From contig JBMORU010000001.1 in NCBI GenBank assembly GCA_049322215.1, positions 969,759 to 1,033,758 on the forward strand: a stretch of DNA of 64,000 nt. Direction: 5' to 3'. This stretch comes from Patescibacteria group bacterium. Lineage in GTDB: Bacteria; Patescibacteriota; WWE3; UBA101185; UBA10185. Positions 2,843-49,245 of the stretch are shown piece after piece. Position numbers and translations under genes: made by a program. A model generated the notes under the pieces. The model did no database searches. It was given only the letters and a program-made list of their open reading frames with translations, and had not been told where the DNA came from. How positions within the stretch are numbered: position 1 is the first letter of the stretch; each line of letters starts with the position of its first letter.

Positions 2843-3040
2843 ATGAAAATTACAAGCAAAAGCCAGTTAGATGAACAAATCGTTGCCGCCCAAAAAGCCG
2901 CAACACCAATGCCCAATTTCACAATTCCTACCAATCCAACGGAAGGACTTGTGGCGGCTACACTGCATACTCTTCAAGTTGAAGCCAAGAGACATGGGTG
3001 GCCTAATCCTAAGCTTCCAAAGATTTTGGGTCAAAAGTAA
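2843..3040 (+). CDS. hypothetical small protein (65 aa), GC-rich relative to surroundings
   Basis: Strong RBS AAGGAG 6 nt upstream of the ATG. It has its own promoter motif and is followed by an intrinsic terminator. No signal peptide. Confidence 0.5.
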   Translation: MKITSKSQLDEQIVAAQKAATPMPNFTIPTNPTEGLVAATLHTLQVEAKRHGWPNPKLPKILGQK

Positions 3041-3063
3041 AGTTTAGAGGCTAGCTTAGTAAA

Positions 3064-3117
3064 CCCCAGATGATTGCATACCAATACCGTTTGCAATTAC
3101 TCTGGGGTCTTTTTTTT
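3064..3117 (+). terminator. rho-independent terminator: stem CCCCAGATGATTGCA / TGCAATTACTCTGGGG followed by T10
   Basis: Inverted repeat plus U-run directly after the 2843 ORF. It lies between convergent genes. Confidence 0.65.
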
Positions 3118-3148
3118 GCTTAAGTTTTACTTTGGCAAAGCGGAAAGA

Positions 3149-5797
3149 TTATTTAGAAACGCGAAGTTTTATGCGCACATCACCTTTACGGCCATCTTCG
3201 TCTTCGGCTACAACATTAAATTCATGCTCGCCAGCCTGCGATTCAGGAAATGTTAAGTTATATCCATATGGCTCAGAAGAATCATCTGCAATTTTTTCTC
3301 CATCAATATAAAATCTTACTTCATCAATATCGTTTGGAGAAGAGACCTCAACCTTTAGTCTAAACTTTAAAGGAACATAGTCACCATCTTTTAAACCAAC
3401 AATATGAACTTCAGGGTTTACATCTTCTTTAAGCTTGCCGTCTTCATATTTAAGTGCTGATTTACTTGTAGGAGGAAAATATAAGTCGTTTCCATTGTAG
3501 TTTTCGCCAACCCAAGCATCTACGTCGTCTTGCCATTCGGGAAGTTCGGCAGTGATTTTAATGTATGTGTTTACTTCAGACTTGTCGGCATTTCTACAAG
3601 AGTCATTAGCTAACTTACCGTCTTTTTCACAAACTTCTACGCTTTGATACCATTCACTGGGCGCCGTAGGTTCGGTACCCTCAATAAACCACTCCTGGCG
3701 GCGAGAAAACTCACCATAGGGAAGTGCTCCCGTTAATTCATCCACTTCAATTTTTTTTACATTTTCAGGAGGCTCAAATTTTTCGTTTTCTTTATCTGCT
3801 AAATACTCACGCATGAATCTATTACCTATGGGTGTAGCTCCAGTTATACCTGATGCTACAAAAGGATTCATTTTGTCATTGTTATTGTTACCAACCCAAA
3901 CCCCTGCCACTACAGAGGGTGTGTATGCCATAAAGTAGTTATCTCGTTTATCATCGGTTGTACCTGTTTTTACAGCAACTTGATGCCCTGGAATATTTAG
4001 CAAACTGCCAGAACCAAAAGCAGCAGAACGAGCACCGTCATCAGACAAAATATCACTCATTAAAAAGGCAACATCTTCTCCAATAACTTGTTGCCCACCA
4101 TTATCTCTCCAACTGTATAAAATATCTCCGCGAGAATTTTTAACTTCTAAAATTCCTGTAGGTTTTCTGTAAACGCCTTTTGCTGCAAGAGTAGAGTATG
4201 CCCCTGTCATTTCTAAAAGCTTAGTTTCTCCGCCTCCTAAAGTTAATGACAAACCATAGCGAGTGGGGTCAGAAAAAGTTGTTATACCCATTGCTTTTGC
4301 TGTATCTATCATAGATTGTATTCCTACAATTTCTAAAGCTTTAACGGCGGGTATGTTCAAAGAATTACCCAAAGATTTTCTAAGAGAAGTAGGACCTTTA
4401 AAAGTGCCGTCATAATTTTCTGGTGTATAAGGCTTGCCCGCATCAGCTTTTTCAAATGTTGTTGGAACGTCTAAAAAGGGGTAAGCAGCAGTATAACCTT
4501 GAGAAAGCATTGTTGCATAAGTAATAGGCTTTATAGAAGATCCAGGTTGCCGGTTAGCTAAAGCAACATTAAGTTGAGGTTCGAAGGTACAACTGTTATC
4601 ACCAGTAATTCCTGAAATACAGCCTTCAGGCTCAGATTCGGCAAAGTAATCTTTAGAACCTACCATAGCCAAAACCTGGCCGGTTTTCGCATCTAAAGCA
4701 ACTAAAGACCCGTTTCCTACATTTAAGTTTTTAGCAGCATCAACTTCTTCTTTTACTATATTTTGTGCCATATCTTGAACATCTAAATCTAATGTGGTTG
4801 TTACCTGCAAACCACCCTGTTCTACCATTTCCTCACCGTATATTTCTACTAATTCATCTCTAACAAAAAATACAAAATGGGGAGCTTTAAAACTTGTTAA
4901 TGCAGTATCAAAAGATAAGTCTACCTGTTTTGCTGCTTCATACTCATCTTTGTTTAAATAATGCCATTGACCGCCTTCTTCCACCCAGCCATTATCAGTC
5001 ATTAAAAATAAAACATAATTTTTACGCTCTAAGCCTGCATTAGGGTCAGAACTGTAGGGTGAATATCTGCTTGGGCTCTGAGGTAACCCAGCTAAGTAGG
5101 CTGCCTCTGCCAAAGTTAGTTCTGAAGGGTGCTTGTTAAAATAAGATTTTGCGGCAGTTAAAATACCATAATTTTGACCACCATAAGGAGTTTCGTTCAA
5201 ATACATTTGAAGTATTTCATCTTTAGAATATTTATTTTCCAGTTGAAGCGCCAAAATAAGTTCTTTTACTTTACGAGAAATTGTTTGTTCTTGAGATAAA
5301 AGTGTGTTTTTTACTACCTGTTGTGTAAGAGTAGAACCACCCTGCAACCCTTCACCTAAAACTATATTACGTGTGGCTCTTAACATACCCCGCAAAGAAA
5401 ACCCTTGATGCTGATAAAATTCAGCATCTTCAGTTGCTAAAGTTGCTTGAACAACATATGGTGAAACATCTTCTAAAGAAACCAACTCGCGATTCTTTTC
5501 GCCATAAACTTCGAAAATAGAGGTTCCATTACGATCGTAAAGCTTTGTTGATAACTCAGCGTCTCTATTAAGTAATCTATCGGGGGTAGGTAAATCTCTA
5601 GAAAATACAGCCAATAAAATAACTACACCTAAAACACCTACCAATATTGAAAACAATGAAAAAGATGCGAGATAAGTTAAATACAATAGTGTCTTAGACC
5701 CCTTATATTTTGTATTAGCTTGAGGTTTTGGGGGTCGGTACGGTGTATACTTTCTCTTTGTTTTTCCACCAAATTTTTTAAAAATTTCCAAAGACAT
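3149..5797 (-). CDS. class A penicillin-binding protein (transglycosylase + transpeptidase) with a roughly 300-aa C-terminal Ig-like extension. The start is revised to the ATG at 5797.
   Basis: TM anchor LLYLTYLASFSLFSILVGVLGVVILLAVF. GT51 motifs EDAEFYQHQGF / GGSTLTQQ. Transpeptidase motifs SSIKP (SxxK), SLN and KTGTT. The listed ORF start at 6166 reads through antisense of the 5922 gene and is not credible. Confidence 0.8.
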   Translation of the reverse strand: MSLEIFKKFGGKTKRKYTPYRPPKPQANTKYKGSKTLLYLTYLASFSLFSILVGVLGVVILLAVFSRDLPTPDRLLNRDAELSTKLYDRNGTSIFEVYGEKNRELVSLEDVSPYVVQATLATEDAEFYQHQGFSLRGMLRATRNIVLGEGLQGGSTLTQQVVKNTLLSQEQTISRKVKELILALQLENKYSKDEILQMYLNETPYGGQNYGILTAAKSYFNKHPSELTLAEAAYLAGLPQSPSRYSPYSSDPNAGLERKNYVLFLMTDNGWVEEGGQWHYLNKDEYEAAKQVDLSFDTALTSFKAPHFVFFVRDELVEIYGEEMVEQGGLQVTTTLDLDVQDMAQNIVKEEVDAAKNLNVGNGSLVALDAKTGQVLAMVGSKDYFAESEPEGCISGITGDNSCTFEPQLNVALANRQPGSSIKPITYATMLSQGYTAAYPFLDVPTTFEKADAGKPYTPENYDGTFKGPTSLRKSLGNSLNIPAVKALEIVGIQSMIDTAKAMGITTFSDPTRYGLSLTLGGGETKLLEMTGAYSTLAAKGVYRKPTGILEVKNSRGDILYSWRDNGGQQVIGEDVAFLMSDILSDDGARSAAFGSGSLLNIPGHQVAVKTGTTDDKRDNYFMAYTPSVVAGVWVGNNNNDKMNPFVASGITGATPIGNRFMREYLADKENEKFEPPENVKKIEVDELTGALPYGEFSRRQEWFIEGTEPTAPSEWYQSVEVCEKDGKLANDSCRNADKSEVNTYIKITAELPEWQDDVDAWVGENYNGNDLYFPPTSKSALKYEDGKLKEDVNPEVHIVGLKDGDYVPLKFRLKVEVSSPNDIDEVRFYIDGEKIADDSSEPYGYNLTFPESQAGEHEFNVVAEDEDGRKGDVRIKLRVSK

Positions 5798-5866
5798 CGT
5801 TGAGTAATTATAGCAATTTAAAACCAATTTTTCATGACTACACACTAGATTACTATGGGGTTTAGA

Positions 5867-5874
5867 TGTATAAT
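5867..5874 (+). promoter_or_regulatory. extended -10 promoter (TGTATAAT) for the lipoprotein gene at 5922
   Basis: TGnTATAAT lies 48 nt upstream of the ATG; RBS AAGGAGAG. Confidence 0.4.
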
Positions 5875-5921
5875 ATAAGGAGTATCGATACTTTCGGATA
5901 GTCATAAGGAGAGTTTGACAA

Positions 5922-6560
5922 ATGAATATTAAAAAATTTGCTGGTCGGGTTTTGCTCATGCTTGCGGTATTGATCTTGATCGGTTGCCAACGACAAGAGC
6001 GGATTTCGATCCTGACCTTTGTTGCAACTTTCACCCCCACACCAACGGTTACGGCAACACCCCTTCCGACTGCAACGCCAACCTTGATCCCGATAGCTAA
6101 TGCTACGGAAGAACCCGAAGCAGTGGCGATTGCAACAACCCCAACAGCAGGCGAACAGGCTTTCATTGACGCCGTTAATGGGTTTGCAAACTCTGAGGTA
6201 GGCGAATGGGTCTTAAGCGACGTTGAAAACCCTCAAGAAGTTACTGGTGACGCTATTATAGGCATTGCCCGAAACATTTTGGCAGCGGTCTACGCCCAAT
6301 TGCAGGAGCAAGGAGCTTTGCCGGAAGACATGCCTACCCTGGAAGATGCATTAGAAGTTTTAAGCACGCCAGAGAAAGCGTTAGCCTTCGGTAGCTGCTT
6401 TAATCCCGCAATCGAATCCTACGAGGAAAATCAAAATGCAGCTGCGCTCGCGGAACAGCTTGCCTACTGCATCGAAAACGTAGACGAATACGAAGGAAAT
6501 CTCGATTTGCGTCGGGCAGTGACAGATTTCATTATCAATCAAATCACAACGGAGGAATAA
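5922..6560 (+). CDS. putative lipoprotein (212 aa; lipobox LIGC; Thr/Pro-rich linker), GC-rich island
   Basis: Signal peptide MNIKKFAGRVLLMLAVLILIGC, then TPTPTVTATPLPTATPT linker. About 52% GC by hand count in 60-nt windows at 5941-6060, against about 27% in a 60-nt window in recG (8301-8360). Confidence 0.6.
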   Translation: MNIKKFAGRVLLMLAVLILIGCQRQERISILTFVATFTPTPTVTATPLPTATPTLIPIANATEEPEAVAIATTPTAGEQAFIDAVNGFANSEVGEWVLSDVENPQEVTGDAIIGIARNILAAVYAQLQEQGALPEDMPTLEDALEVLSTPEKALAFGSCFNPAIESYEENQNAAALAEQLAYCIENVDEYEGNLDLRRAVTDFIINQITTEE

Positions 6561-6561
6561 A

Positions 6562-6675
6562 ATGATTAGCGACAACGCCATGTTGATTCTGATTTTAGTT
6601 ATCATTGTTATTGTGGCACCCTGGGACAAAATCCTTGCTGGTGTTTTTAAACGCAAAGATGATAACGAGAAATAA
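6562..6675 (+). CDS. 37-aa single-TM micropeptide (MISDNAMLILILVIIVIVAPWDKILAGVFKRKDDNEK), co-transcribed with the lipoprotein
   Basis: RBS GGAGGAATAAAATG, 1 nt after the lipoprotein stop. Hydrophobic core plus basic C-terminus. Directly followed by a terminator. It is below the ORF-track cutoff. Confidence 0.4.
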   Translation: MISDNAMLILILVIIVIVAPWDKILAGVFKRKDDNEK

Positions 6676-6682
6676 CTAACCA

Positions 6683-6735
6683 AAGGTCATATGTTATATA
6701 CTTTCAAATCGTATAACATATGACCTTATTTTTTT
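6683..6735 (+). terminator. intrinsic terminator: 17-19 bp perfect inverted repeat AAGGTCATATGTTATATAC / GTATAACATATGACCTT, then T8
   Basis: Read directly from the sequence; it closes the lipoprotein-micropeptide unit. Confidence 0.8.
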
Positions 6736-6878
6736 GCTATAATGCTATTAACAAATTCCAGAAAGAGGCCAGTTTAGACATGAAAGCACTTTTTTATCCC
6801 TCTTCCCGTGTTTTCAGGTCTTTTTTTATTGTTTATCCCACATACAAAAATAGGTAATAATGTTATATACTGCTTTAA

Positions 6879-8078
6879 ATGGCTAAAGTATCTACTAACC
6901 CTGAAAAAATTAATGAAATATTAACTCGAGGAGTGCATGAAGTTTTCACCAAAGAAGACTTAAAGCACAAACTTGAAAGTGGAAAACAGCTGCATATAAA
7001 ACTTGGCATAGATGTTACCGGCCCCTTAATTACTTTAGGGCATGCTGTAGTACAACGCAAATTAAGAGACTTTCAAGAGCTTGGACACAAAGTAACTTTA
7101 ATAGTTGGGGATTTTACAACACTAGTGGGAGACCATTCGGACAAAGTAGACATGCGTGCCGAAACAAACACACAAGAAATAAGTCAAAATGAAAAAACTT
7201 ATAAAGAACAATTTTTTAAAACCGTTATAAAAGAACAAACCGAAGTTAGACACAACTCTGAATGGCTTAAGGACTTAAATTTTAATGATGTTATAGATTT
7301 AGCGCAGCAATTTACAATAGCGCAAATGCTTGATAGAGAAACTTTCATGCTTAGATATAAAGAAAACAAACCAATAGGGCTTGATGAGTTTTTATACCCA
7401 TTAATGCAAGGATATGATTCGGTAGCTTTAAATTGTGATGTGGAGCTGGGAGGCACTGATCAAACGTTTAACTTGCTTGCAGGACGTAAGCTAATGCCAC
7501 ACTTTAATTTAGCCCCACAGTCAGCTATAGCAATGAAGTTATTAACCGGTAATGATGGAAGGCCTATGGGTAAATCATTAAAAAACTACATTCCAGTTAT
7601 GGACGACGCAAACGATATGTTTGGCAAAGTTATGTCTATAGTAGATGAAATAATTTGGGAATATTTTGAGCTTTCAACAAGAGTACCAATGAGCGAAATA
7701 GAAAAGATGCGTAAAGAGGTTGAAAGCGGTGCAAATCCGATGGAGTTTAAAAAGCTTCTAGCTAAAGATATTGTTACTTTTTATCATGGCAACGCCAAAG
7801 CAATAGAAGCAGAAAAACATTTTGAAAAAACCGTACAGAATAGAGAAATGGCTGAAGAAGACATTTTAGATATAGAAACAGACGCATACGCTACTGTGTT
7901 TCAGGCTATTCAAGAGGCTCAGTTTGAAGGAATTTCTAATTCAGAGATAAAAAGAGTAATCGAGCAGGGAGGCGTAGAGTTAAACGGAGAAAAAATACTT
8001 GACCCAAACAGAATTGGAAACTTTAATAAAGGAGATATTATTAAGTTTGGAAAAAGAAGATTTATAAGGGTTAAATAA
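6879..8078 (+). CDS. tyrS: tyrosyl-tRNA synthetase
   Basis: Class I HIGH-like motif (TLGH), KMSKS-like PMGKS, and a C-terminal S4 domain (EIKRVIEQGGVELNGEKILD...). The S4 domain distinguishes TyrS from TrpS. Confidence 0.8.
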   Translation: MAKVSTNPEKINEILTRGVHEVFTKEDLKHKLESGKQLHIKLGIDVTGPLITLGHAVVQRKLRDFQELGHKVTLIVGDFTTLVGDHSDKVDMRAETNTQEISQNEKTYKEQFFKTVIKEQTEVRHNSEWLKDLNFNDVIDLAQQFTIAQMLDRETFMLRYKENKPIGLDEFLYPLMQGYDSVALNCDVELGGTDQTFNLLAGRKLMPHFNLAPQSAIAMKLLTGNDGRPMGKSLKNYIPVMDDANDMFGKVMSIVDEIIWEYFELSTRVPMSEIEKMRKEVESGANPMEFKKLLAKDIVTFYHGNAKAIEAEKHFEKTVQNREMAEEDILDIETDAYATVFQAIQEAQFEGISNSEIKRVIEQGGVELNGEKILDPNRIGNFNKGDIIKFGKRRFIRVK

Positions 8079-8081
8079 TTT

Positions 8082-10377: not shown

Positions 10378-10390
10378 CCTATAGTATAAT
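10378..10390 (+). promoter_or_regulatory. CCTATAGTATAAT promoter element, copy 2
   Basis: Exact 13-mer, 43 nt upstream of the ATG at 10434. Confidence 0.5.
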
Positions 10391-10433
10391 TAGGCAACTA
10401 TCTGATAAACCAATACAAAAGGAGTACCTTACT

Positions 10434-11366
10434 ATGTACTTTAACAAAAAAATCACGACTTTGCTTTTATGGCTGCTTTTGATTATTTTGATGGCAGCAT
10501 GTGGAAGTGCGGACGATGCGGCAAGTGCTTTGCGCACGGCTGCGGATGCGGTAGAAAGCGTAGGTGAGGCCTCAGAAGATGTTAATGAACTAATTAATAA
10601 TCTTCAACAACCACCTCAAGCAAATAACACTGCACAAACAACCACAACAGACACTACAGGAACAACCGAACAACCCCAAAGTACGCCTGCAACACAAACA
10701 TGTAGTGGACAGGTTCAGTTCAACAACACAACCAGCATGGAGCTCTATGAGCATTACCCTGAGCTTGTCAACATGCAACCTACTCAGGCCAACACACTAA
10801 GCACATCATTTGGGCAGCTGGTATTTTACAACTACACCAACGTCCAAATCGACATGCAGGCCATTTCCAGTGCAGTCGAAAAACTGTACAGCATGGTAGG
10901 TAAGCAGGCTTTTCGGCTAAATACTGGAGGTACACCATACTGCCTTGTTGCAAAATCGTTCCCTAGTAGAACGTTGGTTATTGTTCCTCGCGAAATCGGC
11001 CGTTCGGAACTGACACCTGCGCAAAGCCACACCAACGCGGGCACATTTTTGGCAAGCAACGGCGCGTTTTCTTTCGTGTACTTTGAAAGGGGTTTCGAAG
11101 AAAGAGCCGATCAGGCAGTAAACATGGCAGCCATATTCACAGAGCTATGCAACGTACACCTGGGCATTGTAAGTCCATATTACGATGCAGAGGGTCCAGA
11201 CTGGTTCTGCAATGATTACATTGTGGGAAGCACGTTTAAAATTTTTGGCTTAGAAAGCGACACCAACGGTATTGCAACCAGGGCTAAAAACAACGGTGCT
11301 GACAATTTCTTCTATGTAGTCGATTTTAATGACTATATGGACACGGCACTGTTTAACATCGACTAA
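10434..11366 (+). CDS. lipoprotein, paralog A (310 aa; lipobox MAAC), GC-rich
   Basis: Signal peptide plus Cys. Shares motifs with the next two genes: MELYEHYPELVNMQP, LVIVPREIG, ELCN, DWFCNDY. I counted about 63% GC in 10501-10560. Confidence 0.6.
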   Translation: MYFNKKITTLLLWLLLIILMAACGSADDAASALRTAADAVESVGEASEDVNELINNLQQPPQANNTAQTTTTDTTGTTEQPQSTPATQTCSGQVQFNNTTSMELYEHYPELVNMQPTQANTLSTSFGQLVFYNYTNVQIDMQAISSAVEKLYSMVGKQAFRLNTGGTPYCLVAKSFPSRTLVIVPREIGRSELTPAQSHTNAGTFLASNGAFSFVYFERGFEERADQAVNMAAIFTELCNVHLGIVSPYYDAEGPDWFCNDYIVGSTFKIFGLESDTNGIATRAKNNGADNFFYVVDFNDYMDTALFNID

Positions 11367-11374
11367 TCTATTAC

Positions 11375-11421
11375 GGGATCTAAAGTTTGTTAAAAAAAAC
11401 AAACCTTAGGTCCCTTTTTTT
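11375..11421 (+). terminator. intrinsic terminator (GGGATCTAAAGTTTGTT ... AACAAACCTTTAGGTCCC + T7)
   Basis: Imperfect inverted repeat plus T-run after paralog A. Confidence 0.6.
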
Positions 11422-11442: not shown

Positions 11443-11455
11443 CCTATAGTATAAT
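11443..11455 (+). promoter_or_regulatory. CCTATAGTATAAT promoter element, copy 3
   Basis: Exact 13-mer, 56 nt upstream of the ATG at 11512. Confidence 0.5.
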
Positions 11456-11511: not shown

Positions 11512-12522
11512 ATGAAAAAAGCAATTGCTTTAGCTTCGCTAATGTTTTTATGGCTGTTAACAGCATGTGCAACAGGGGATGCAAGTTCGTCAAAAAGTGC
11601 AACTGACACTATTTTGGATGAAATTGCGGCAAACATCGTGGAAAGTGATTCTAAGCCTTCAACTGGCCAATTTCCACCACCTCCGCAGGCACCACCTTTA
11701 AATACAAACGCAAGTGGGGATTCAAACAGGGCTGCTTTGACATTGCCAACCACATCTGTGACAAATGCCGTGCCAAATACTACTGAGGTTCCGGCATACG
11801 GTTTGAGGTACGTTTCGTTTGAGAGCATGGAATCTTCAAACGTAGATATGTACGCTCATTTTCCTGCGCTGCATAACTATACCCCGTGGCAAAACTTTAC
11901 AGTAACCTCGGGGGGAATTAGCGTTACATTCGTTAATTTCAACCAAAGCATTAACCTCAACCAAAATGTACTACAACACTTTTTGGATGGGTTAGCTACA
12001 GCATCACAAAGTTGGGTGAATGTTACCAGCGTTGACGGTACCACATACGACCTGCGCATTTCAAAGTCCCAGAGCATTACTGTTATGGTTGCTCCGTACG
12101 ACATAGGTACATCTGATCTTATGAGTGATGAACATACGCTTGGTAACTACCCCGAACAACGCATTCAGGGATACTCGTTAATAACTGGAAGTGGTATTCT
12201 TGGCGTGGTAAAAAGCGATGGTGGAAACGGAACAAATGACTTAATTTTAACTGAAGCATGCAACAGCTTCATTGATTTAAGTCCCAATGGCTTTTACGCA
12301 GAAGATATGGAAATCGCCATTTACAGCAACACCTCTATTGTTCCTGGGGACGCGTTTTGTAACATGTATGCACGCTCTAGCTCTTACACTTCTGGAGGAC
12401 ATGTTACAAATCACCAAGAGCTGTACAGCTTTATGAGCACGCTTACTGTTTTTGGTTACCAGTACATGTATTTGCCTGAGCAATTATTTGGCGGGTACAT
12501 AACACAGTATGTAACAAACTAA
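11512..12522 (+). CDS. lipoprotein, paralog B (336 aa; lipobox LTAC)
   Basis: Motifs VDMYAHFPALHNYTP, ITVMVAPYDIG, TEACNSF, DAFCNMYA. Confidence 0.6.
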   Translation: MKKAIALASLMFLWLLTACATGDASSSKSATDTILDEIAANIVESDSKPSTGQFPPPPQAPPLNTNASGDSNRAALTLPTTSVTNAVPNTTEVPAYGLRYVSFESMESSNVDMYAHFPALHNYTPWQNFTVTSGGISVTFVNFNQSINLNQNVLQHFLDGLATASQSWVNVTSVDGTTYDLRISKSQSITVMVAPYDIGTSDLMSDEHTLGNYPEQRIQGYSLITGSGILGVVKSDGGNGTNDLILTEACNSFIDLSPNGFYAEDMEIAIYSNTSIVPGDAFCNMYARSSSYTSGGHVTNHQELYSFMSTLTVFGYQYMYLPEQLFGGYITQYVTN

Positions 12523-12528
12523 TATACA

Positions 12529-12573
12529 GGTTCAACTTTTAGGAAAAATCCCTACAAGTTGAACCTTTTTTTT
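12529..12573 (+). terminator. intrinsic terminator (GGTTCAACTT ... AAGTTGAACC + T8)
   Basis: Perfect 10-bp stem plus T-run. Confidence 0.7.
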
Positions 12574-12605
12574 ACTTAAAAGAAAAACCTTTTCACGTGC
12601 AAGAG

Positions 12606-12618
12606 CCTATAGTATAAT
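12606..12618 (+). promoter_or_regulatory. CCTATAGTATAAT promoter element, copy 4
   Basis: Exact 13-mer, 44 nt upstream of the ATG at 12663. Confidence 0.5.
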
Positions 12619-12662: not shown

Positions 12663-13493
12663 ATGAAAGGTAAAGCAACTCTGTATGTAGTAATACTGCT
12701 TCTCGTGGTAGCGTTGTTAAGCGGATGTACCAATGAAGAGGCTGTTTCGACTTTGACAACTGTAATTGAGGATGCAACAGGCAGTACTCAAGTAGAAAAC
12801 ACAAATCCAGACCAAGGCGGCACTATAAATGTTAGTGGCACGGCCAACCTGGATATTTATGCACACTATCCACAGTTGGCTAATGTGACTCCATTAGAGG
12901 ATTTCACGCTTACATCACCTGCAAGCTACGGTTATTCCGTACGCATTGTGAATTACAGCCATTTATCTGTAAACTCCGCTGCGGCCGGTCAATACCTTGA
13001 CTTGTTGCACTGGTTTGCGTGGAACAAAGTCACAGCTTTGGATATGAAAAATGTTGACCATTATATTTACATAAAGAATGTGCCAACTACCCAGCATGTT
13101 TTAGTAATTGTGCCCCAAGAAGTAGGTGCTTCGGTACTTATGCCAGAAGGAAACAATGTTAGAGGGGGCACACAAACTGGCACAAACGGTACGTTTGCAT
13201 TTTCTATGTTTAACGCGCAAACGCTTGATGTAAGCGAAAAAGGCAAAAATGAACTGAGGTTACTAGTTGAATTATGCAACTCATTCATTGGTGCCGGCAA
13301 TAATGGTTACAACTCTGGAGAAAGCGATGCTTTTTGCAATTCATATGCTACTGCTACGGTGCTAAAAGCGTTTGGTCTCAAACAAAATCTACAAGAAGTA
13401 ATTGACGCCTCTAAAGATGGCCAGTGGGGAAGTTATACCTTTATGTATATCAACTCCTGGGACGCATATATAGGCGCGCAAGTAACTAACTAA
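12663..13493 (+). CDS. lipoprotein, paralog C (276 aa; lipobox LSGC)
   Basis: Motifs LDIYAHYPQLANVTP, VLVIVPQEVG, VELCNSF, DAFCNSYA. Confidence 0.6.
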   Translation: MKGKATLYVVILLLVVALLSGCTNEEAVSTLTTVIEDATGSTQVENTNPDQGGTINVSGTANLDIYAHYPQLANVTPLEDFTLTSPASYGYSVRIVNYSHLSVNSAAAGQYLDLLHWFAWNKVTALDMKNVDHYIYIKNVPTTQHVLVIVPQEVGASVLMPEGNNVRGGTQTGTNGTFAFSMFNAQTLDVSEKGKNELRLLVELCNSFIGAGNNGYNSGESDAFCNSYATATVLKAFGLKQNLQEVIDASKDGQWGSYTFMYINSWDAYIGAQVTN

Positions 13494-13501: not shown

Positions 13502-13556
13502 GGCCAAAAGAGTAAATCCACTCATAATGGAAATTCATTCTTTTGGCTTTTTTTTC
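13502..13556 (+). terminator. intrinsic terminator (GGCCAAAAGA ... TCTTTTGGC + T9)
   Basis: Inverted repeat plus T-run. Confidence 0.65.
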
Positions 13557-14143: not shown

Positions 14144-14225
14144 AACACACAAATTTATATTTAAAAAATAAAAAAAGAGGCTTGGAGTGTACTGTTTAAT
14201 TTGTACAAACCAAACCTCATGTTAT

Positions 14226-14912
14226 TTAGGCACCATAAGATGCAGTAGTACCCAAAGGATCAAGCTGACCGTAAATATTTTGCATTTCCTGAAGGGCAGC
14301 ACGGGCGCGTGTAATACGATGGTTACCGGCAGAAGGTTTAACATCAGGAAGTGCTAAGTGGGCGTGTGTGTCCACATGCTCTATCATCTGCGTTGTAACC
14401 AACATCAAGACCCTAATCTGGAAAATGGCACACTCTGTTGATACAGTTATTTGTTGTGCACCAAAGCCTTTCCCAATCGATGCATTTAAACCCCGGGCTA
14501 TTCCCAAAATGTACTCAGCAGCCTCATCCATTAGGGGTTGATGCGTTCGAGTAAGCACTGGACCTAAATCAACGACAGTGTTAAGGGCTAGACCCAACAC
14601 GTTGATACGCTGCTCAGATTCCGTTTTTGACAAATTATGCCCGGTGGTAGGAAAAACAGACAAAACTGTGTCTACCAGCGCTATAACAGCCCATTCAAAC
14701 GCTTCAAGCACTCTTTGAGCATCTGGGTTATTTTTAGCTGCATACTCACGCATTCTGTTTCGAGCAATTTTAATTTTTTTGTAGAATTTCATTCCCTTTG
14801 CATCTTCTGGGGGTTCGTCATCTACAGAAAAAGTTAAAAGCCAAAACAGAGTTGAGAGCGCAGTTAAATTAAATGCACCCCGCAACAAATTACCTATTGT
14901 AAGCCTCTTCAT
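14226..14912 (-). CDS. hypothetical protein with an N-terminal TM/signal segment, GC-rich
   Basis: RBS AAGGAGAATGAGTTAAATG. A CTATAGGG(tgc)TATAAT promoter-like element lies upstream on the minus strand at about 14967-14990. I counted about 53% GC in 14281-14340. Confidence 0.5.
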   Translation of the reverse strand: MKRLTIGNLLRGAFNLTALSTLFWLLTFSVDDEPPEDAKGMKFYKKIKIARNRMREYAAKNNPDAQRVLEAFEWAVIALVDTVLSVFPTTGHNLSKTESEQRINVLGLALNTVVDLGPVLTRTHQPLMDEAAEYILGIARGLNASIGKGFGAQQITVSTECAIFQIRVLMLVTTQMIEHVDTHAHLALPDVKPSAGNHRITRARAALQEMQNIYGQLDPLGTTASYGA

Positions 14913-15024
14913 ATTAACTCATTCTCCTTGCAATATTTGATTTTGATGATAATTATATCAGTGCTGTATTATAGCACCCTATAGTAATGAAGATCAACAT
15001 TGTAAAAAGGGTTGGGGGCTTAAG

Positions 15025-15701: not shown

Positions 15702-17135
15702 ATGATTTTCATAGTGCTCAAAATTTATAAAAAAACAAAAATAATATCTACATTAGGTCCCGCTTCGGAAGACCCCCAGAAAATAAAAAAACTAATTGAA
15801 AGTGGTGTAAATGTATTTAGGTTTAACATGAAGCATGGAACAGTTGAATGGCATGAGAATGCTATAGAGAAAGTTCAGAAAATAGCAAATGAACTAGAGT
15901 ACTCGCTTGGAATTTTAATTGACTTACAAGGGCCTGAAATAAGAATACAAACAAAAAATGGTGAGGAGTTAGAAATAAAAGAAGGACAGGAAATAATTTT
16001 TACACATGTATTTAAAAACGACAACGACCTTATTAGAATCCCACATAAGTCTTTTTTTGATGCGCTAGAAGAAGGAGATAAGTTTTCAATTGACGATGGC
16101 TTTATAAGATTTGTTGTTACAAAAAAAGAAACAAACCGCCTAACTGCAGGAACATTAGATGACGCTATAGTAAAAAATAACAAGGGGTTAAATTTAGTTG
16201 GTAAAGATATAGATTTGCCATCAATGATTGACGATGATATTGAGAGATTACATCTTGCAGTAAGAAAAAAAGTAGACTATGTGGCATTATCTTTTGTAAG
16301 AACAAAACATGATGTCATTGCGTTAAAACAGGAAATGAAGCGAAAGAAAATTAATGCTCAAATAGTATCAAAAGTAGAAAGCCAAAAAGGACTTGATAAT
16401 ATTGAAGAAATAATTGATGAATCCGATGTAGTAATGATTGCAAGAGGAGACTTAGGTATTGAAGTTCCTATGGAACAAATTACATATCATCAAAAGCAAA
16501 TTATTAATAAATGTAGGCTAGCGCATAAACCTGTAATTGTTGCTACACAAATGCTGCAGTCAATGATTGAATACCCATTACCTACACGTGCAGAAGCGAC
16601 AGATGTTGCTAATGCCGTTTTTGACGGAACTGATGCGGTAATGCTTTCGGGCGAAACTGCAACAGGAAAATACCCATTAAAAGCGGTAGAGGCTATGAGT
16701 AAAATTTTGGCGTTTAACGAAGAAAAGGCAGAGGTCACAAAATTTAACACTATTCCAACAAATGCCACAGAATTAATAGTTAGAGCTGCCGAAGATATAG
16801 CAGAACATGCTTTTGAACCTAAAACCAAATTTATTGTAGTGTTTACAGAAACTGGATATACCGCAAAAGTTTTATCCAGTTTTAGACCTAAAATCCCTAT
16901 TATTGCAGTTACGCATAATCAAAAAACTGTAGAAACACTGACGCTTTCTTATGGTGTAACCCCTGTAAAAGTTAAATTTCCCAAAAGCGGCAGATTAATT
17001 TCCCCCGATGCAGTTTTACAAAAAATAAAAGAGTTAAAACTAGTACATAAAGGGGACAACATTCTTTTAATCCACGGACAACATTGGCAAAAACCAGGTC
17101 AAACCAACGCTATAGTATTTTTGCCTGTAGAATAA
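15702..17135 (+). CDS. pyk: pyruvate kinase
   Basis: KTKIISTLGPAS, NVFRFNMKHG and MIARGDLGIEVP motifs. Confidence 0.85.
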   Translation: MIFIVLKIYKKTKIISTLGPASEDPQKIKKLIESGVNVFRFNMKHGTVEWHENAIEKVQKIANELEYSLGILIDLQGPEIRIQTKNGEELEIKEGQEIIFTHVFKNDNDLIRIPHKSFFDALEEGDKFSIDDGFIRFVVTKKETNRLTAGTLDDAIVKNNKGLNLVGKDIDLPSMIDDDIERLHLAVRKKVDYVALSFVRTKHDVIALKQEMKRKKINAQIVSKVESQKGLDNIEEIIDESDVVMIARGDLGIEVPMEQITYHQKQIINKCRLAHKPVIVATQMLQSMIEYPLPTRAEATDVANAVFDGTDAVMLSGETATGKYPLKAVEAMSKILAFNEEKAEVTKFNTIPTNATELIVRAAEDIAEHAFEPKTKFIVVFTETGYTAKVLSSFRPKIPIIAVTHNQKTVETLTLSYGVTPVKVKFPKSGRLISPDAVLQKIKELKLVHKGDNILLIHGQHWQKPGQTNAIVFLPVE

Positions 17136-17195
17136 TTACCTGTTATAATAATACTCACAAAAATAATTGTTAAACCCATAACATGGAGGAATAAA

Positions 17196-17411
17196 ATGAG
17201 TTTCAGTCATTTGATGCTGCAAGAAAATACTGTTAAACACTTTAAGGGGCAATTGGGTAACGAGGCAGTTGGGTTGAAGTTTAAAATGATTAAAAAAAAT
17301 GGTAGACCCGCCAACCTCGTTTTCACCGTAACCGAGGTGAAAAATTTTGGTTTTTGGACTGACAAAAGTATGCTCATTGCCGACGACATTTTGATTCAGA
17401 TAGTGGGCTAA
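17196..17411 (+). CDS. hypothetical small protein (71 aa), with its own promoter and terminator
   Basis: Extended -10 TGTTATAAT at about 17143-17152, RBS GGAGGAATAAAATG, and a hairpin plus T-run at about 17412-17470. Confidence 0.5.
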   Translation: MSFSHLMLQENTVKHFKGQLGNEAVGLKFKMIKKNGRPANLVFTVTEVKNFGFWTDKSMLIADDILIQIVG

Positions 17412-17595
17412 CCAATAGGGGATCTCTAACAAAAGTGAAAACACTTTTTGCTAGAAATCCCTTTTTTTTGTTTATAACAAATAGGTTGACAAATAAGGCA
17501 ATCATAACCTATATTACCCCAGCAAGGAGTTATTGATTTAACTTCTAAAATGCACTACCATGGTTTTAAGTGCAATGAAAGGATTTTTATAAAAA

Positions 17596-45426: not shown

Positions 45427-46683
45427 TTACTGTCTTTTCTTTAAGGCAAAACCGCTAGTTATAGATGTTAAGCCTAGCAAGGTTAACACTACAGTTGAAG
45501 TAGCACCTGTTCTAGGTAATTCTTCTATACTTAGCACTTCACCATTTTCGTAACATACCGTTGCGGTATCTGAAGCTTCTTCATTATCATCATATTTAGC
45601 TACAGCTTCATTAACTACACACTTACTAAAGTCAGTTCTGTCGTATTCTTCAGAGTTAACTTTAACAGTAATGTAAAAGGTTCTTTCTTCACCAGGTTTA
45701 AAGTTATCCCAATCTTCGGTTAAGTCACCTGAAAGCTTAGCTAACTCATCTGGTAAAAAATCGTGCATACGCATATTATCGAATTCTACATCGTCAACAT
45801 CACCTGAATCAGTGTTGTTTTTAACTACGATTCTAAACTCAACTTCATCATCTTCAGTAACACCGGTTACTTTATCTTTCCATGATTTGTCACCTTTAAT
45901 GCGAACTTTCTTCTCTATATCAAAGGATTTATTAACGATACAGTCACCACCACCATAAGAACATACAGGTTCTTCGGGTTCCTCTGGCTGTTCACACTCA
46001 GAAGCATTGTATGAAACAGTATGCTTTTCAGTGTCACCAGAGTTTACCTTAACTCTAAGTTCTACTTCACCTGAATCAATAGAAGTCAAATTTGTATCTA
46101 ACTTCCATGTTTCGGAATCTCCAGAATTCAAAGTACGTGTGTCACCAGTAATACCTGTTTGTTTGTCTTTAGGTGTAATTTCTACAACATAATTTGAATC
46201 ACTGTTATCATTATTTTTAACTTGAACGTTAATTACTACACTTTCTTCTTCGCATGCAACCTCAGCAGAATAGGTTATAGAACCTTCAGGCTCTTCTTCA
46301 CCTTTACAGTTTATAGCTTCATAAGATACTTTTCTTTTATCAGTACCCTTGTTGCCATTTGTCCAAGTTAAGTAAAATTCAACTTCACCGGCAGATACAC
46401 TATTTAAGCCTGTATCAATTTCCCAAATAGCTTCTTCACCGGGATTTACAGTTTTAGTATCTCCTGACACGCCAGACTGCAAATCTGTAGGTGTAACATC
46501 CATAGCAGCTTGAGAGTTCTTTTCAGTATTTTTAAAAGTCGCTTTAATGACTACAGAATTATCTGTACAAACAGCTTCAGCTTCTTGAGATGTTTTCCAT
46601 GCGTTAGTGCTATAAACAGGCATAAAGGCAACTGTAACGGCAACTAAAAGCATTGTCTTTGAAATATTTCTTTTAATATTCAT
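45427..46683 (-). CDS. LPXTG (LPRTG) sortase-anchored surface protein (start revised to the ATG at 46683: MNIKRNISKTMLLVAVTVAFMPV...)
   Basis: C-terminus LPRTGATSTVVLTLLGLTSITSGFALKKRQ is a sorting signal. The C-terminal roughly 190 aa are paralogous to the gene at 46846. The CTATAGGGTATAAT promoter is at about 46753-46766 (minus strand). Confidence 0.65.
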   Translation of the reverse strand: MNIKRNISKTMLLVAVTVAFMPVYSTNAWKTSQEAEAVCTDNSVVIKATFKNTEKNSQAAMDVTPTDLQSGVSGDTKTVNPGEEAIWEIDTGLNSVSAGEVEFYLTWTNGNKGTDKRKVSYEAINCKGEEEPEGSITYSAEVACEEESVVINVQVKNNDNSDSNYVVEITPKDKQTGITGDTRTLNSGDSETWKLDTNLTSIDSGEVELRVKVNSGDTEKHTVSYNASECEQPEEPEEPVCSYGGGDCIVNKSFDIEKKVRIKGDKSWKDKVTGVTEDDEVEFRIVVKNNTDSGDVDDVEFDNMRMHDFLPDELAKLSGDLTEDWDNFKPGEERTFYITVKVNSEEYDRTDFSKCVVNEAVAKYDDNEEASDTATVCYENGEVLSIEELPRTGATSTVVLTLLGLTSITSGFALKKRQ

Positions 46684-46792
46684 GGGGCAAGCCTCCAAAT
46701 TAATAAATACAAGTACAAAATAAGGATCCGAAGATCCTAAATATTCATTTATTATACCCTATAGTCACTACAGTGTCAAACTAGGACAAAAA

Positions 46793-46819
46793 GAGAAGGG
46801 CTCCGTAAGGAGCCCTTCT
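46793..46819 (-). terminator. intrinsic terminator (GAGAAGGGCTCC gtaa GGAGCCCTTCT + T-rich tract on the minus strand)
   Basis: Perfect stem 27 nt after the stop of the 46846 gene. Confidence 0.65.
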
Positions 46820-46845
46820 AAACATTAACTGTAACGTAGCTGACT

Positions 46846-47970
46846 TTACTTTCTTCTTTTCAAGGCATAACCACTAGTTATAGAGGTTAATCCCAGTAAG
46901 GTTAGTACTAATGTTGAAGCCGCACCTGTTTCAGGTAGTTCCTCAATGCCTAGTACATCTTCGGTGTCAGAATAACAAACGGTAGCCGTGTCAGAACCTT
47001 CTTCGGTTCCGTCATAAATCACTGTAGCCTCATTAACTACACACTTGTCAAAGTCAGATCTATCGTACTCATCAGGATCAACTCTTACTCTGATGATGAA
47101 AGTTCTTTCTTCACCAGGTTTAAAAGCATCCCAATCTTCAGTTAAGTCACCAGAAAGCTTAATTAGCTCATCTGGCAATATATCGTGCATTCTCATGTTA
47201 TCGAATGCAACACCATCAACATCGTTAGCGTCAGTTTTGTTTTTTACAACAACCCTAAACTCTACGACATCATCAAATTCAACATCAGTTACTTTATCTT
47301 TCCATTTTTTGTCACCCTCTATACGAACCTTTTTCTCTATATCAAATGACTTGTTAATGATACAGTTTTCACCACCTCCGTAGCCTCCACCGTAACCACC
47401 GTAGATACTACATGGGGTTTCTTCTGGATCATCTTCAGGTTCTGGCTCAGGTTCGTTAGCAGGACAGCTTATTTCATGATGTTGCGCAATACTGTCAGCA
47501 GCATAAAGCTTTAACTCTCCAGCTTTGGGCAAGGTGAATGAAGATTCAACCACCATACCTTGAGGGGACTCGTAAACAACTTCTCCATTAAGGTAAAACT
47601 TGTTTACACGTTCATCAACATCGTCGTCAATAAACACATAGCTGAATTCACATCCAGCAGGTAACTCCCCGAAATTCACCCATTCATGGAAGATTTTTGT
47701 GTAGGCTTCGGAGCTAGTCCAAACTCGTTCCTTACGTGTAGAAGTGTAAGTATCACTATCTACAGTATCAAAACGAAACGGATTAGTTCTTTTAACTACA
47801 AATACTTCATTAGAATCCTTTGTATAACTTGCACTACCTTCGCCCAAATACTGAGTTTCTGGTAAAGCAAAAGCCTCATTAAGAGGCATTATCCCAAGGG
47901 CTAAGATTGTCATAGCAACAACCTTAAGTGATTTATCAGAGAGCCTTGAAATGAATTTTATTAAGTTCAT
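46846..47970 (-). CDS. LPXTG (LPETG) sortase-anchored surface protein
   Basis: LPETGAASTLVLTLLGLTSITSGYALKRRK; GY/GG-rich segment; RBS AGGAAGGAG; a TATAAT next to CTATAGG lies upstream. Confidence 0.65.
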   Translation of the reverse strand: MNLIKFISRLSDKSLKVVAMTILALGIMPLNEAFALPETQYLGEGSASYTKDSNEVFVVKRTNPFRFDTVDSDTYTSTRKERVWTSSEAYTKIFHEWVNFGELPAGCEFSYVFIDDDVDERVNKFYLNGEVVYESPQGMVVESSFTLPKAGELKLYAADSIAQHHEISCPANEPEPEPEDDPEETPCSIYGGYGGGYGGGENCIINKSFDIEKKVRIEGDKKWKDKVTDVEFDDVVEFRVVVKNKTDANDVDGVAFDNMRMHDILPDELIKLSGDLTEDWDAFKPGEERTFIIRVRVDPDEYDRSDFDKCVVNEATVIYDGTEEGSDTATVCYSDTEDVLGIEELPETGAASTLVLTLLGLTSITSGYALKRRK

Positions 47971-48113
47971 TTAAGAACTCCTTCCTAGGTTTAAATTGTT
48001 AACCTATAGTAATTATAGGGGGAAAAGCAAAGTATGTCAAACGCTGAAACTAAACGCTTTGGGAGGGTTTATTAGTTGCTAAATATTAATAATAAATGTG
48101 ATAAACTACGATC

Positions 48114-48659
48114 ATGAAAAAGACAAACTCACACTTTCACACAATTCCGCAGGATAAAGCTCCTGAGGTCTTAAATTTAATTGTAGAAATTAAAAAAGGG
48201 GATATAAACAAATACGAATATAACCATGAGCTCGGAATCATAGAGCTAGATAGAGTGCTTTATGGACCAGTTCATTTTCCCGTTAATTATTGCGATGTAC
48301 CAAGAACATGGAATGAAGACGACGGCGATCCATTGGACGCTGTAGTTTTCACAAGTGGAAATTTAGTACCTGGGTGTATGGTAAAGGGTAGAGTAATTGG
48401 AGTTATGGAAATGGATGATAACGGCGAAAAAGATAACAAAATAATATGTGTGGCTAAAAAAGATCCCAGATTTAATCAAGTTAAACATGTAGATGACTTA
48501 AGAGAATACGAAAAGAAAGATTTAAAAACTTTCTTTGAAACATACAAGTATGCGCAAACGGGTCCAGGGACAGTAACAATCGGCGAATTTTTGGGACCTG
48601 AAGCAGCGTACAAGCTAATTAAAGACGCAATGGAAGCCTACGATAGACTTTTTGAATGA
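48114..48659 (+). CDS. ppa: inorganic pyrophosphatase (family I)
   Basis: DGDPLD and VIGVMEMDD motifs. Confidence 0.85.
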   Translation: MKKTNSHFHTIPQDKAPEVLNLIVEIKKGDINKYEYNHELGIIELDRVLYGPVHFPVNYCDVPRTWNEDDGDPLDAVVFTSGNLVPGCMVKGRVIGVMEMDDNGEKDNKIICVAKKDPRFNQVKHVDDLREYEKKDLKTFFETYKYAQTGPGTVTIGEFLGPEAAYKLIKDAMEAYDRLFE

Positions 48660-48688
48660 AAATAGCTGTATTAATTACTAGACTAGGA

Positions 48689-48717
48689 AAAACCGCGGTG
48701 GAAGCTGCGGTTTTTTT
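48689..48717 (+). terminator. intrinsic terminator (AAACCGC ... GCGGTTT + T7)
   Basis: Follows ppa. Confidence 0.55.
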
Positions 48718-48792
48718 ACAAAAAAGTCTAAAGTTTTTACACAAACACAACAATGTAAAAACCTTAGACCTGTAAACTACGCCGAATTACGG

Positions 48793-49245
48793 TTACAAAG
48801 GGGCACTAACGTGCAGTAGCAACATGCCCATTTCACCAATTGGCCACCAAGCCTCATCATGGCATACACGCCCTTTACCGCTGTCTTTTTCAGGGTTAAG
48901 CACCGTGTGTAAAAACTTTTCTTCATCTGCCATAGAGGTGGGCAATGTCAAAATAAGATCAACATTTGGACTGCTGCGCTGAGTGTGCTTCCACGAAAGC
49001 CAGTGCAAATTCGCTCTGCTTCTGGTAAACGCCAGGTCAGCAAGCCTACTTAAAAATCCAACCCTAATAGCTAATCTGCGCAAAAGCACAGGTAGGGGAC
49101 GTCGATCAACAACGGTTACACTAAGAAAACCTGCATCCTCAACGTAAAAATCATAAACAACTTGTCCAGGAATAGCCTTTTGTATACGCAGAAACGGCAA
49201 AAGACTCTTGTCTACCTTTAAACCCTCATATACTTTATTTCGCAT
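48793..49245 (-). CDS. hypothetical protein (150 aa), GC-rich
   Basis: RBS AAGGAGAGA. I counted about 52% GC in 48841-48900. CCTATAGTG lies upstream on the minus strand. Confidence 0.45.
   Translation of the reverse strand: MRNKVYEGLKVDKSLLPFLRIQKAIPGQVVYDFYVEDAGFLSVTVVDRRPLPVLLRRLAIRVGFLSRLADLAFTRSRANLHWLSWKHTQRSSPNVDLILTLPTSMADEEKFLHTVLNPEKDSGKGRVCHDEAWWPIGEMGMLLLHVSAPL

Follow-up and report, generated by a model that had tools for sequence, protein, structure and literature searches.

The 64-kb window analyzed here, a 64,000-nt stretch of a WWE3 (Katanobacteria) chromosome, holds, together with its immediate left flank, about ten orphan genes set amid housekeeping genes. The genes of the window include pheT, a class A penicillin-binding protein (PBP) gene, tyrS, recG, rsmD, pyk, nusB, rnc, rpsP, trmD, a type IV pilus cluster, gyrB, and gyrA. 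The orphans are lineage-specific, encode mostly surface lipoproteins and small proteins, and stand out by their high G + C content (GC). Seven of them had been listed, in an original prediction made from the letters of the DNA, as scattered GC-rich outliers that are hypothetical or secreted. That description holds: none of ten outlier proteins matches a Pfam family, NCBI annotates all of the outliers as ‘hypothetical protein’ (locus tags ACOZAO_), and four of the proteins have a signal peptide and a lipobox cysteine. By inspection of the translations, the lipoboxes read LIGC (o5922), MAAC (o10434), LTAC (o11512), and LSGC (o12663), each ending a signal peptide. A short way beyond the right edge of the window, the contig also has genes for Lgt (PF01790, LGT) and for LspA/signal peptidase II (PF01252, Peptidase_A8).

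Three of the lipoproteins, o10434, o11512, and o12663, are paralogous (24–28% identity, E values of 5e-18 to 6e-27) and conserve YxHYPxL, IVPxExG, ELCN, and FCN motifs. A structure model of moderate confidence suggests that this three-member family is possibly zincin-like in fold. The HExxH zinc-binding motif that zincin metallopeptidases (M1/M9/M61-like) have on their active-site helix is absent from the paralogs; their conserved helix reads T-E-L/A-C-N-S/V, without a conserved His pair. The fourth lipoprotein, o5922, is laid out as its lipobox, a Thr/Pro-rich linker, and a helical C-terminal domain. The single-sequence structure model of o14226 (predicted local distance difference test score of 51) is unusable for function.

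Each unit is predicted with high confidence to comprise a near-consensus sigma-70 promoter, a Shine-Dalgarno site, one or two open reading frames (ORFs), and a hairpin/T-run terminator (Table 1); in most of the promoters a CCTATAG box is joined to TATAAT or lies close to it. On the downstream side, all units have a hairpin with a folding energy (dG) of −15 to −25 kcal/mol and, after it, a T-run. The exact 13-mer CCTATAGTATAAT occurs before o2843, o10434, o11512, and o12663, 55–70 nt 5′ of the start codons; these four exact copies compare with an expectation of 0.008 per window for independent, identically distributed letters. In a sigma-70 consensus scan, the unit promoters are among the best matches of the region (10–11 of 12 positions for o2843, o12663, o14226, and o17196). 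Of 180 hexamers of the same base content, CTATAG is the most enriched in intergenic DNA (nine sites in 4.2 kb; median hexamer, one), and six of these nine sites lie directly upstream of outliers. The box is missing upstream of housekeeping genes such as tyrS, recG, gyrB, and gyrA. The earlier statement that most outliers carry a CTATAGG/TATAAT promoter signature is true for six of the seven, o5922 having only CTATGG-N10-TATAAT. A scan of JGI metagenomes for TTAACA-N10-CCTATAGTATAAT returned four matches in unrelated contexts, about the number estimated for chance, so the exact box is lineage-specific.

Table 1 Coordinates of the orphan units, with their predicted signals, and of the promoters of two nearby secreted genes (z, z-score of synonymous third-position G + C; RBS, ribosome-binding site; dN/dS, ratio of nonsynonymous to synonymous divergence between strains)
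Feature	Position	Strand	Details
o2843 promoter	2744..2772	+	TTAACA-N17-TATAAT, 11/12 sigma-70 match; CCTATAGTATAAT at 2760-2772; strain-B indel junction within box
o2843, 65-aa orphan ORF	2843..3040	+	GC 43.9%, z 2.1; AAGGAG RBS; no Pfam; hypothetical protein ACOZAO_05305
o2843 intrinsic terminator	3057..3128	+	hairpin dG -24.6 kcal/mol, then T8
o5922 promoter-like region	5853..5874	+	CTATGG-N10-TATAAT, degenerate box
o5922, 212-aa orphan lipoprotein	5922..6560	+	GC 48.5% (window maximum), z 8.1; dN/dS 0.30
37-aa membrane peptide ORF, predicted on same transcript as o5922	6562..6675	+	from the source's gene caller; z 3.2
o5922-unit intrinsic terminator	6682..6735	+	hairpin dG -21.0 kcal/mol, T7
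o10434 promoter box CCTATAGTATAAT	10378..10390	+	exact 13-mer
o10434, 310-aa lipoprotein, paralog 1	10434..11366	+	GC 45.4%, z 8.2; between recG and rsmD
o10434 terminator	11374..11421	+	hairpin dG -19.6 kcal/mol, T7
o11512 promoter box CCTATAGTATAAT	11443..11455	+	exact 13-mer
o11512, 336-aa lipoprotein, paralog 2	11512..12522	+	GC 42.8%, z 5.6
o11512 terminator	12527..12593	+	hairpin dG -20.6 kcal/mol, T8
o12663 promoter	12590..12618	+	TTTTCA-N17-TATAAT, 10/12 match; CCTATAGTATAAT at 12606-12618
o12663, 276-aa lipoprotein, paralog 3	12663..13493	+	GC 42.1%, z 4.4
o12663 terminator	13503..13555	+	hairpin dG -15.1 kcal/mol, T8
o14226 terminator	14163..14218	-	hairpin dG -20.3 kcal/mol, T-run
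o14226, 228-aa orphan	14226..14912	-	N-terminal hydrophobic segment; GC 43.7%, z 3.9
o14226 promoter	14968..14997	-	TTGATC-N18-TATAAT with TG, 10/12 match; contains CTATAGG-N4-TATAAT
o17196 promoter	17110..17149	+	CTATAG-N5-TTGCCT-N17-TATAAT with TG, 10/12 match
o17196, 71-aa orphan ORF	17196..17411	+	pyk-rpmF/nusB slot; GC3s 0.455, z 4.6; no Pfam
o17196 terminator	17419..17469	+	hairpin dG -15.7 kcal/mol, T8
Sigma-70 promoter of 45427-46698	46751..46779	-	perfect TTGACA-N17-TATAAT, 12/12; CTATAGG inside
Sigma-70 promoter of 46846-47970	48012..48040	-	perfect 12/12; CTATAG immediately downstream of -10 hexamer
o48793 terminator	48720..48792	-	hairpin dG -20.8 kcal/mol, T6
o48793, 150-aa orphan ORF	48793..49245	-	GC 44.4%, z 3.8; AAGGAG RBS; no Pfam, PHROG or IMG/VR relative
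o48793 box variant CCTATAGTGTGTTAAG	49278..49297	-	upstream of o48793

Perfect promoters also precede two adjacent secreted orphans on the minus strand, 45427–46698 and 46846–47970, which have weak or faint Pfam matches to Gram_pos_anchor (LPXTG-type) and strong terminators. The first, whose promoter has CTATAG in its spacer and is of the same class as those of the outliers, has normal third-position G + C (GC3), and the second has a z-score of 2.2. With a common segment of 77.5% nucleotide identity, the two are partial paralogs.

Composition was compared gene by gene over the window plus 9.2 kb to its left and 6.7 kb to its right, about 80 kb of a ~1.1-Mb genome. The whole window has 36.7% GC. 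At the gene level the seven listed ORFs reach 42.1–48.5%, as against 32–38% in core genes and 33.4% in recG; in 60-nt windows the outliers have medians of 43–50% and maxima of 52–63%, and recG has a median of 33%. The earlier hand counts of 44–63% for the outliers therefore describe the upper part of the 60-nt distribution, and those of 27–30% for recG were slightly too low. The outliers remain GC-rich, with an actual contrast of about +9–15 points, less than the hand counts implied.

For each gene, the observed synonymous third-position G + C (GC3s) was set against the expectation from background codon usage and the gene’s own amino acids, and the difference was expressed as a z-score. The outliers are real by this measure, with z of 2.1–8.2 for the seven listed genes and −2.8 to +2.3 for the remaining 54 genes of the window; the lowest outlier value belongs to o2843, for which just 62 codons were scored. 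The original prediction had allowed that, genome-wide, its GC values might lie within the normal gene-to-gene spread. Over the genes of the window and flanks this is not so, every outlier but o2843 lying beyond all other window genes. Two small ORFs absent from the earlier list, o17196 and the 37-aa ORF downstream of o5922, both taken from the gene caller of the source, are outliers as well. The left and right extensions contain 18 normal genes and two further outliers, a 425-aa protein (z = 5.6) and a 381-aa polytopic membrane protein (z = 6.6), both just left of the window. Among the 60 genes with precomputed Pfam status, z exceeds 3 in 9 of the 22 without a Pfam family and in none of the 38 with one (Fisher p = 3.4e-5). 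As the GC3s test conditions on amino acids, amino-acid composition is ruled out as the only cause.

The shift extends to all three codon positions, pooled GC1/GC2/GC3 being 0.503/0.408/0.411 in the outliers and 0.480/0.337/0.247 in the core. Codon shares rise from core to outliers for CTG (0.03 to 0.14), CGG (0.02 to 0.12), AGG (0.07 to 0.19), and ATC (0.06 to 0.20); GCG and ACG are about twice as frequent, and ATA, AGA, and TTA fall by half or more. In nearly every codon family, G-ending and C-ending codons are both increased. Lys is halved in the outlier proteins and Ile and Glu are fewer, while Ala, Thr, and Gln are more frequent. The dinucleotide signature, normalized for base composition, separates outliers from core by a delta* (×1000) of 92.5, a value that none of 500 size-matched random core subsets reaches (33.9 ± 12.1). 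The flanks of the units (promoters, leaders, and terminators; 1,630 nt) have 31.2% GC, equal to other intergenic DNA, and the GC excess is therefore limited to coding sequence. Together these data support a compositionally distinct class of genes that is foreign-like in both codon usage and dinucleotide signature.

Other genes of the window show what a raw GC scan would return. Two giant proteins of 1058 and 955 aa (29526–32702 and 33419–36286, both on the minus strand) within the type IV pilus cluster have genes of ~42% GC that such a scan would flag, though they are not codon-usage outliers: their GC is high through codon position 2 alone (GC2 of 0.51–0.55, rich in small and polar residues) and their GC3 is normal. 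At the opposite extreme from the orphan units, a KH-domain (KhpA-like) gene at 19563–19862 (+) has the lowest GC3 of the window (0.10–0.12, z = −2.8).

The original prediction had offered a highly expressed class as one explanation, which in terms of codon usage would mean translational selection. Genes for S16, L20, L35, IF3, EF-P, and pilins have normal GC3, however, and the codons that rise in the outliers include rare G-ending ones (CTG, CGG, AGG, GCG, and ACG, by two- to six-fold) and not just C-ending wobble codons. The units do have the best sigma-70 matches of the window and strong ribosome-binding sites (RBSs), and the C-ending codons TAC, TTC, AAC, and TGC are increased in two-fold families, as expression-driven codon choice would have it. 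On the other hand, GC1, GC2, and the dinucleotide signature are shifted as well, and the two equally well-promoted neighbors at 45427–47970 are normal in GC3. A global shift toward G- and C-ending codons alongside ordinary GC3 in ribosomal-protein genes is not a signature of translational selection, and we consider this explanation highly improbable.

The orphan status of the outliers was examined in several collections. In a word-indexed search of 5.8 billion clusters, o10434 and o14226 matched themselves alone, and o5922 had one match, a strain variant with 94% identity. When 1.84 billion representatives were searched exhaustively with an HMMER profile, two matches came up, one driven by a repeat and the other a plausible distant relative (P0005, E = 6.5e-5). 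IMG/VR contained no relative for four outlier proteins, blastn against INPHARED and PLSDB returned nothing, PHROGs gave only weak matches to low-complexity signal or linker segments, and PADLOC reported nothing. A phage, plasmid, or defence origin was dropped after these searches. There was no Rfam or tRNA match at the outliers, and these nulls, along with strong coding evidence, rule out structured RNA genes in place of the ORFs.

That the outliers are real genes is indicated by their RBSs and lipoboxes, by paralogy at the protein level, and by ratios of nonsynonymous to synonymous divergence between strains (dN/dS) of 0.06–0.30. The same observations, with conserved Cys motifs in the paralogs and signal peptides ending in lipoboxes, leave a close to negligible probability that we are dealing with spurious ORFs in GC-rich non-coding DNA or with a chimeric assembly. 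GC-rich stretches of AT-rich genomes do give long chance ORFs, an antisense ORF (3149–6166) crosses the 5922 region, and the proteins are without homologs, all of which an artefact would produce. Nonetheless, an independent assembly and a 1.11-Mb NCBI contig both have the units where the window has them, and there is no Rfam or tRNA match.

The independent assembly comes from a second strain, strain B, and consists of four short contigs (L045, L047, L055, and L057) from sample ERR15087771; the strain of the window is represented by a 196,699-bp Logan contig from sample SRR32167788. Positions 1–14711 and 47151–49752 of the window could be compared. All of the units covered are found at the same positions in strain B and in the NCBI contig, and chimeric assembly is thereby ruled out, as is insertion in the very recent past. 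Strain B has an additional 348-bp unit between pheT and o2843 (L045, ~3925–4272) that does not occur in the window. This unit is composed of TTAACA-N10-CCTATAGTATAAT, an RBS, a 51-aa ORF, and a terminator. Its Lys/Arg-rich peptide has a Cys-rich C-terminus (MAILKRDEKRKEDYTKTYREEGEKKSIFRRFSFSKRCTGKDSCTCANCLNY), and its exact sequence is absent from a collection of 15 billion proteins. The single promoter of the window equals the left half of the promoter of the extra unit joined to the right half of the o2843 promoter. Thus, the indel spans exactly one module from promoter to promoter, and the crossover point falls within the box CCTATAGTATAAT.

Three units are the most diverged segments between the strains, in flanks that are 98–100% identical. 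The strain-B allele of o2843 has 87.7% nucleotide identity (synonymous divergence, dS, of 0.37; dN/dS of 0.21), that of o5922 has 95.3% (dS of 0.11; dN/dS of 0.30), and that of o14226 has 93.8% (dS of 0.24; dN/dS of 0.06), with 0–1 differences in rsmD and the spacers next to it. Identity between the strains is 99.8–100% for the lipoprotein block and o48793, 96.3% for part of the neighboring recG, and 99.9% for tyrS. Near-identity of the lipoprotein block and o48793, divergence of parts of recG, and low dN/dS in the divergent units rule out uniformly faster evolution of the units. Along the compared stretches, differences occur in short dense patches (e.g., 2201–2400, 4601–4800, and 9001–9400) with kilobases without any between them. 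The divergence of the strains is a recombination mosaic in a near-clonal background, and some units are carried as old diverged alleles under purifying selection.

The positions of the units were compared with those of relatives. Among GTDB species representatives, the closest RecG proteins (54–60% identity) belong to metagenome-assembled genomes labelled candidate division WWE3 or ‘Saccharibacteria’, which makes the organism a WWE3 member with no closely related species sequenced. In nearly all WWE3 relatives, and in Firmicutes as well, rsmD follows recG at a short distance (~50–120 bp; 18 WWE3 and about 20 Firmicutes loci); in the window a 3.2-kb lipoprotein block splits the two genes. The one relative with a gap at this point (L012) has there a 508-aa M32-type carboxypeptidase-like gene with a HEVGH motif (12031–13557, minus strand) and normal GC, which makes the recG–rsmD junction a place of recurrent insertion whose content differs by lineage. 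The rsmD–pyk slot of the same relative holds a GC-rich membrane ORF in the position and orientation of o14226.

Relatives also hold small, Pfam-less, GC3-rich ORFs of their own in the pbp–tyrS, tyrS–recG, and rsmD–nusB slots (L002–L008, L017, and L039). Related boxes often precede these, as with CCTTATAGTATAAT in L003, CCTTATAGTACAAT in L017, and CTATAG-N4-TTGAAA-N17-TATAAG in L007 and L039. The slot ORFs form three syntenic families in one clade, with slot proteins 27–50% identical as compared to 68–86% for RecG. No homolog of any window outlier was detectable in the relatives, and no homology was detectable between the outliers and the GC-rich slot ORFs.

Horizontal acquisition from a high-GC donor, for example the host of an episymbiont, followed by promoter capture had been the first explanation of the original prediction, and it is here partly supported. 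Foreign-like codons and dinucleotides, together with insertion into conserved synteny, agree with acquisition, and non-coding flanks of native composition fit capture of native promoters (or a native regulatory context). No donor is identifiable in any database searched, however. For the three outliers queried in the 5.8 billion clusters there are no homologs outside the species, and host-derived genes normally have recognizable relatives. With no donor identified, acquisition from a host or from any sampled high-GC donor is unsubstantiated. A recent transfer from one specific higher-GC donor would further have to contend with the absence of homologs in bacteria, archaea, phages, and plasmids for the outliers queried, with units at the same positions in two strains, which are thus not very recent, and with relatives that show the same phenomenon in other gene families. 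We regard it as improbable.

We favor, with a probability of about 0.6, the interpretation that the outliers are autonomous accessory gene cassettes of the WWE3 chromosome, similar to the phage elements known as morons, whose composition stems from a distinct gene pool. The architecture, insertion, orphan status, and strain polymorphism of the cassettes carry high confidence. Residing in gaps between conserved housekeeping genes, the cassettes would represent the flexible part of the genome and would be gained and lost as promoter-to-promoter modules. Some may be deeply diverged alleles that recombine into near-clonal backgrounds under purifying selection. Their products would be surface lipoproteins processed by Lgt and LspA, membrane proteins, and small soluble proteins, which may act at the cell surface, for example in interactions with a host or with phages. 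The atypical composition could mean that the cassettes have resided in, or been imported repeatedly from, a compositionally distinct gene pool that related populations share and that is as yet unsampled.

Several observations weigh against this interpretation. The exact box is found at just 4 of the ~10 units, similar boxes precede two genes of normal GC3, and the regulatory flanks are native in composition. No donor or carrier (a bacterial or archaeal homolog, a phage, or a plasmid) was found in the searches, so import is inferred from composition only. Of the seven cassettes, four hardly differ between the strains, and hence not all of them are hot spots of variation. The compositional data cover ~80 kb of a ~1.1-Mb genome. 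In the WWE3 relatives, all seven members of the rsmD–nusB family have z of 2.0–6.2, and of the slot homologs that were not selected for high GC3, 10 of 11 have positive z. The synonymous sites of those genomes are saturated (RecG identity of 75–80%). Raised GC3 in syntenic slot families thus speaks for a bias that is maintained and against a transfer whose trace is fading, and a simple recent transfer with subsequent amelioration leaves the GC3 of the relatives’ slots unexplained. The three lipoprotein paralogs of the window are likewise all GC3-rich, yet only 24–28% identical.

Native, vertically inherited genes whose GC is kept high by a local process, either GC-biased gene conversion at recombination hot spots or selection at the mRNA level on strongly transcribed monocistronic units, would account for much of this: raised GC3 in slot families of another WWE3 clade despite saturation, divergent paralogs that are all GC3-rich, and an excess confined to coding sequence between native flanks. 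Cassettes also coincide with recombination patches and allele replacement, and the GC shift at all three codon positions with fewer Lys, Ile, and Glu is what biased conversion predicts for weakly constrained proteins. Such a process is nonetheless difficult to reconcile with four cassettes in clonal patches where nothing indicates raised exchange, with a dinucleotide signature that is distinct even after normalization for base composition, and with the normal GC3 of 45427–46698 and 46846–47970, whose promoters are equally strong. The effects reported for biased gene conversion in bacteria are also much smaller than the +16 GC3 points seen here. We consider a native origin of this kind possible, if on the unlikely side.

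Returning to the cassette interpretation, an extension that we advance as speculative and rather doubtful is a ‘cassette compartment’ of WWE3 or Patescibacteria, in which orphan genes would travel as modules running from promoter to terminator. The box CCTATAGTATAAT and its relatives would serve both as transcription signal and as homology for insertion, deletion, and tandem duplication, and for long spans of evolution coding GC would be actively kept ~10–20 GC3 points higher than in the core. If true, the compartment would be a counterpart of phage morons that resides in the chromosome, is linked to promoters, and retains a base composition of its own.

One further region of the window contains a box. 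An 838-bp gap without ORFs (56360–57197, read on the minus strand; ~28% GC) lies beside a tyrosine recombinase gene (55373–56359). It has a near-exact promoter box, CCTATAGTATTAT, at 57126–57114, followed by four direct copies of (G/A)TTGTCATA(G/C)TT spaced 25–32 nt apart (~57097–57008). Rfam has no match to the gap, and none of its reading frames exceeds 44 aa. Iterons or regulator sites, a small-RNA promoter, and an origin-like region are candidate readings.

Bacteria of the candidate phyla radiation have tiny genomes with many proteins of unknown function, and how they gain and vary surface proteins, presumably for host attachment and escape from phages, is poorly understood. Three features by which the cassettes can be recognized, namely a GC excess limited to coding sequence, the promoter box that they share, and terminators of their own, may be used together to mine the flexible genomes of WWE3 and related lineages. 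Orphans that are GC-richer than the core run against the usual bacterial pattern. If the same holds genome-wide, this lineage would lend itself to telling gene import and locus-specific bias apart as causes of GC heterogeneity within a genome. The finding itself is one of well-documented accessory genes of atypical composition in a poorly studied lineage and not of a new mechanism.

Among known systems, integron cassettes share with the units a modular, single-gene organization, gain and loss at a conserved junction, and many orphans. Integron cassettes are promoterless, end in attC, and need an adjacent IntI and attI, whereas the units here are scattered and have their own promoters and terminators; no integron integrase is encoded near the units, and attC was not searched for with a dedicated model. 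The vsp, vlp, vsa, and vpma loci of Mycoplasma are tandem families of variable surface-lipoprotein genes of wall-less or reduced bacteria. Shared with them are tandem paralogous lipoprotein genes, a conserved 5′ regulatory sequence, a reduced-genome, host-associated bacterium, and products that are likely surface-exposed and variable. In contrast to the Mycoplasma loci, each copy here has a complete promoter and terminator, and there are no silent copies or repeat-rich C-termini. The lipoprotein block has no adjacent site-specific recombinase and no homopolymer tract in a promoter spacer that could act as a switching device, and there is thus no evidence for phase variation.

Genomic islets and ORFans, as framed by the amelioration model of Lawrence and Ochman and the ORFans of Daubin and Ochman, share with the units an atypical composition, lineage restriction, short genes of unknown function, and insertion in synteny. 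E. coli ORFans are AT-richer than the genome (PMC3514957), and across 4,644 gut species orphans match the GC and GC3s of their genomes (Rho of 0.96), GC being lower in orphans that are phage-like or arose de novo (PMC11293555). Unlike these usual ORFans, AT-richer or genome-like, the outliers here are 6–12 points GC-richer. Related lineages moreover keep the bias in syntenic families, which sets the units apart from islets and ORFans and is not predicted by simple amelioration. With the classical genomic island they have atypical composition and codon usage in common, but not mobility hallmarks or donor-lineage homologs. The window has no tRNA gene, and the units have no adjacent integrase and no flanking att repeats; the sole junction repeat is the promoter box, and the only tyrosine recombinase (55373–56359) is 6–50 kb from the units.

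The closest likeness in architecture is to phage morons, a concept of Juhala and Hendrix for autonomous accessory transcription units of lambdoid and other prophages, defined as extra DNA between genes that are adjacent in relatives, with its own promoter and terminator and a GC unlike that of its neighbors (PMC3594210). Going by sequence predictions, units here and morons alike have a single gene with a promoter and a factor-independent terminator to itself. Insertion between genes adjacent in relatives, deviating GC, and presence that varies among close relatives are likewise common to both, and moron products are often surface or host-interaction proteins, as is proposed for those of the units. 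Such insertion is evident for the recG–rsmD block and for the strain-B unit between pheT and o2843. Residence in a phage or prophage is not, the neighbors being housekeeping genes (pheST, PBP, tyrS, recG, rsmD, pyk, nusB, and gyrA) and the units having no similarity to phage families. Unlike morons, several of the units share one promoter box, which is also the indel junction, and in a genome that is AT-rich the units exceed their surroundings in GC. With the architecture of morons outside a phage context, they are best described as moron-like chromosomal cassettes.

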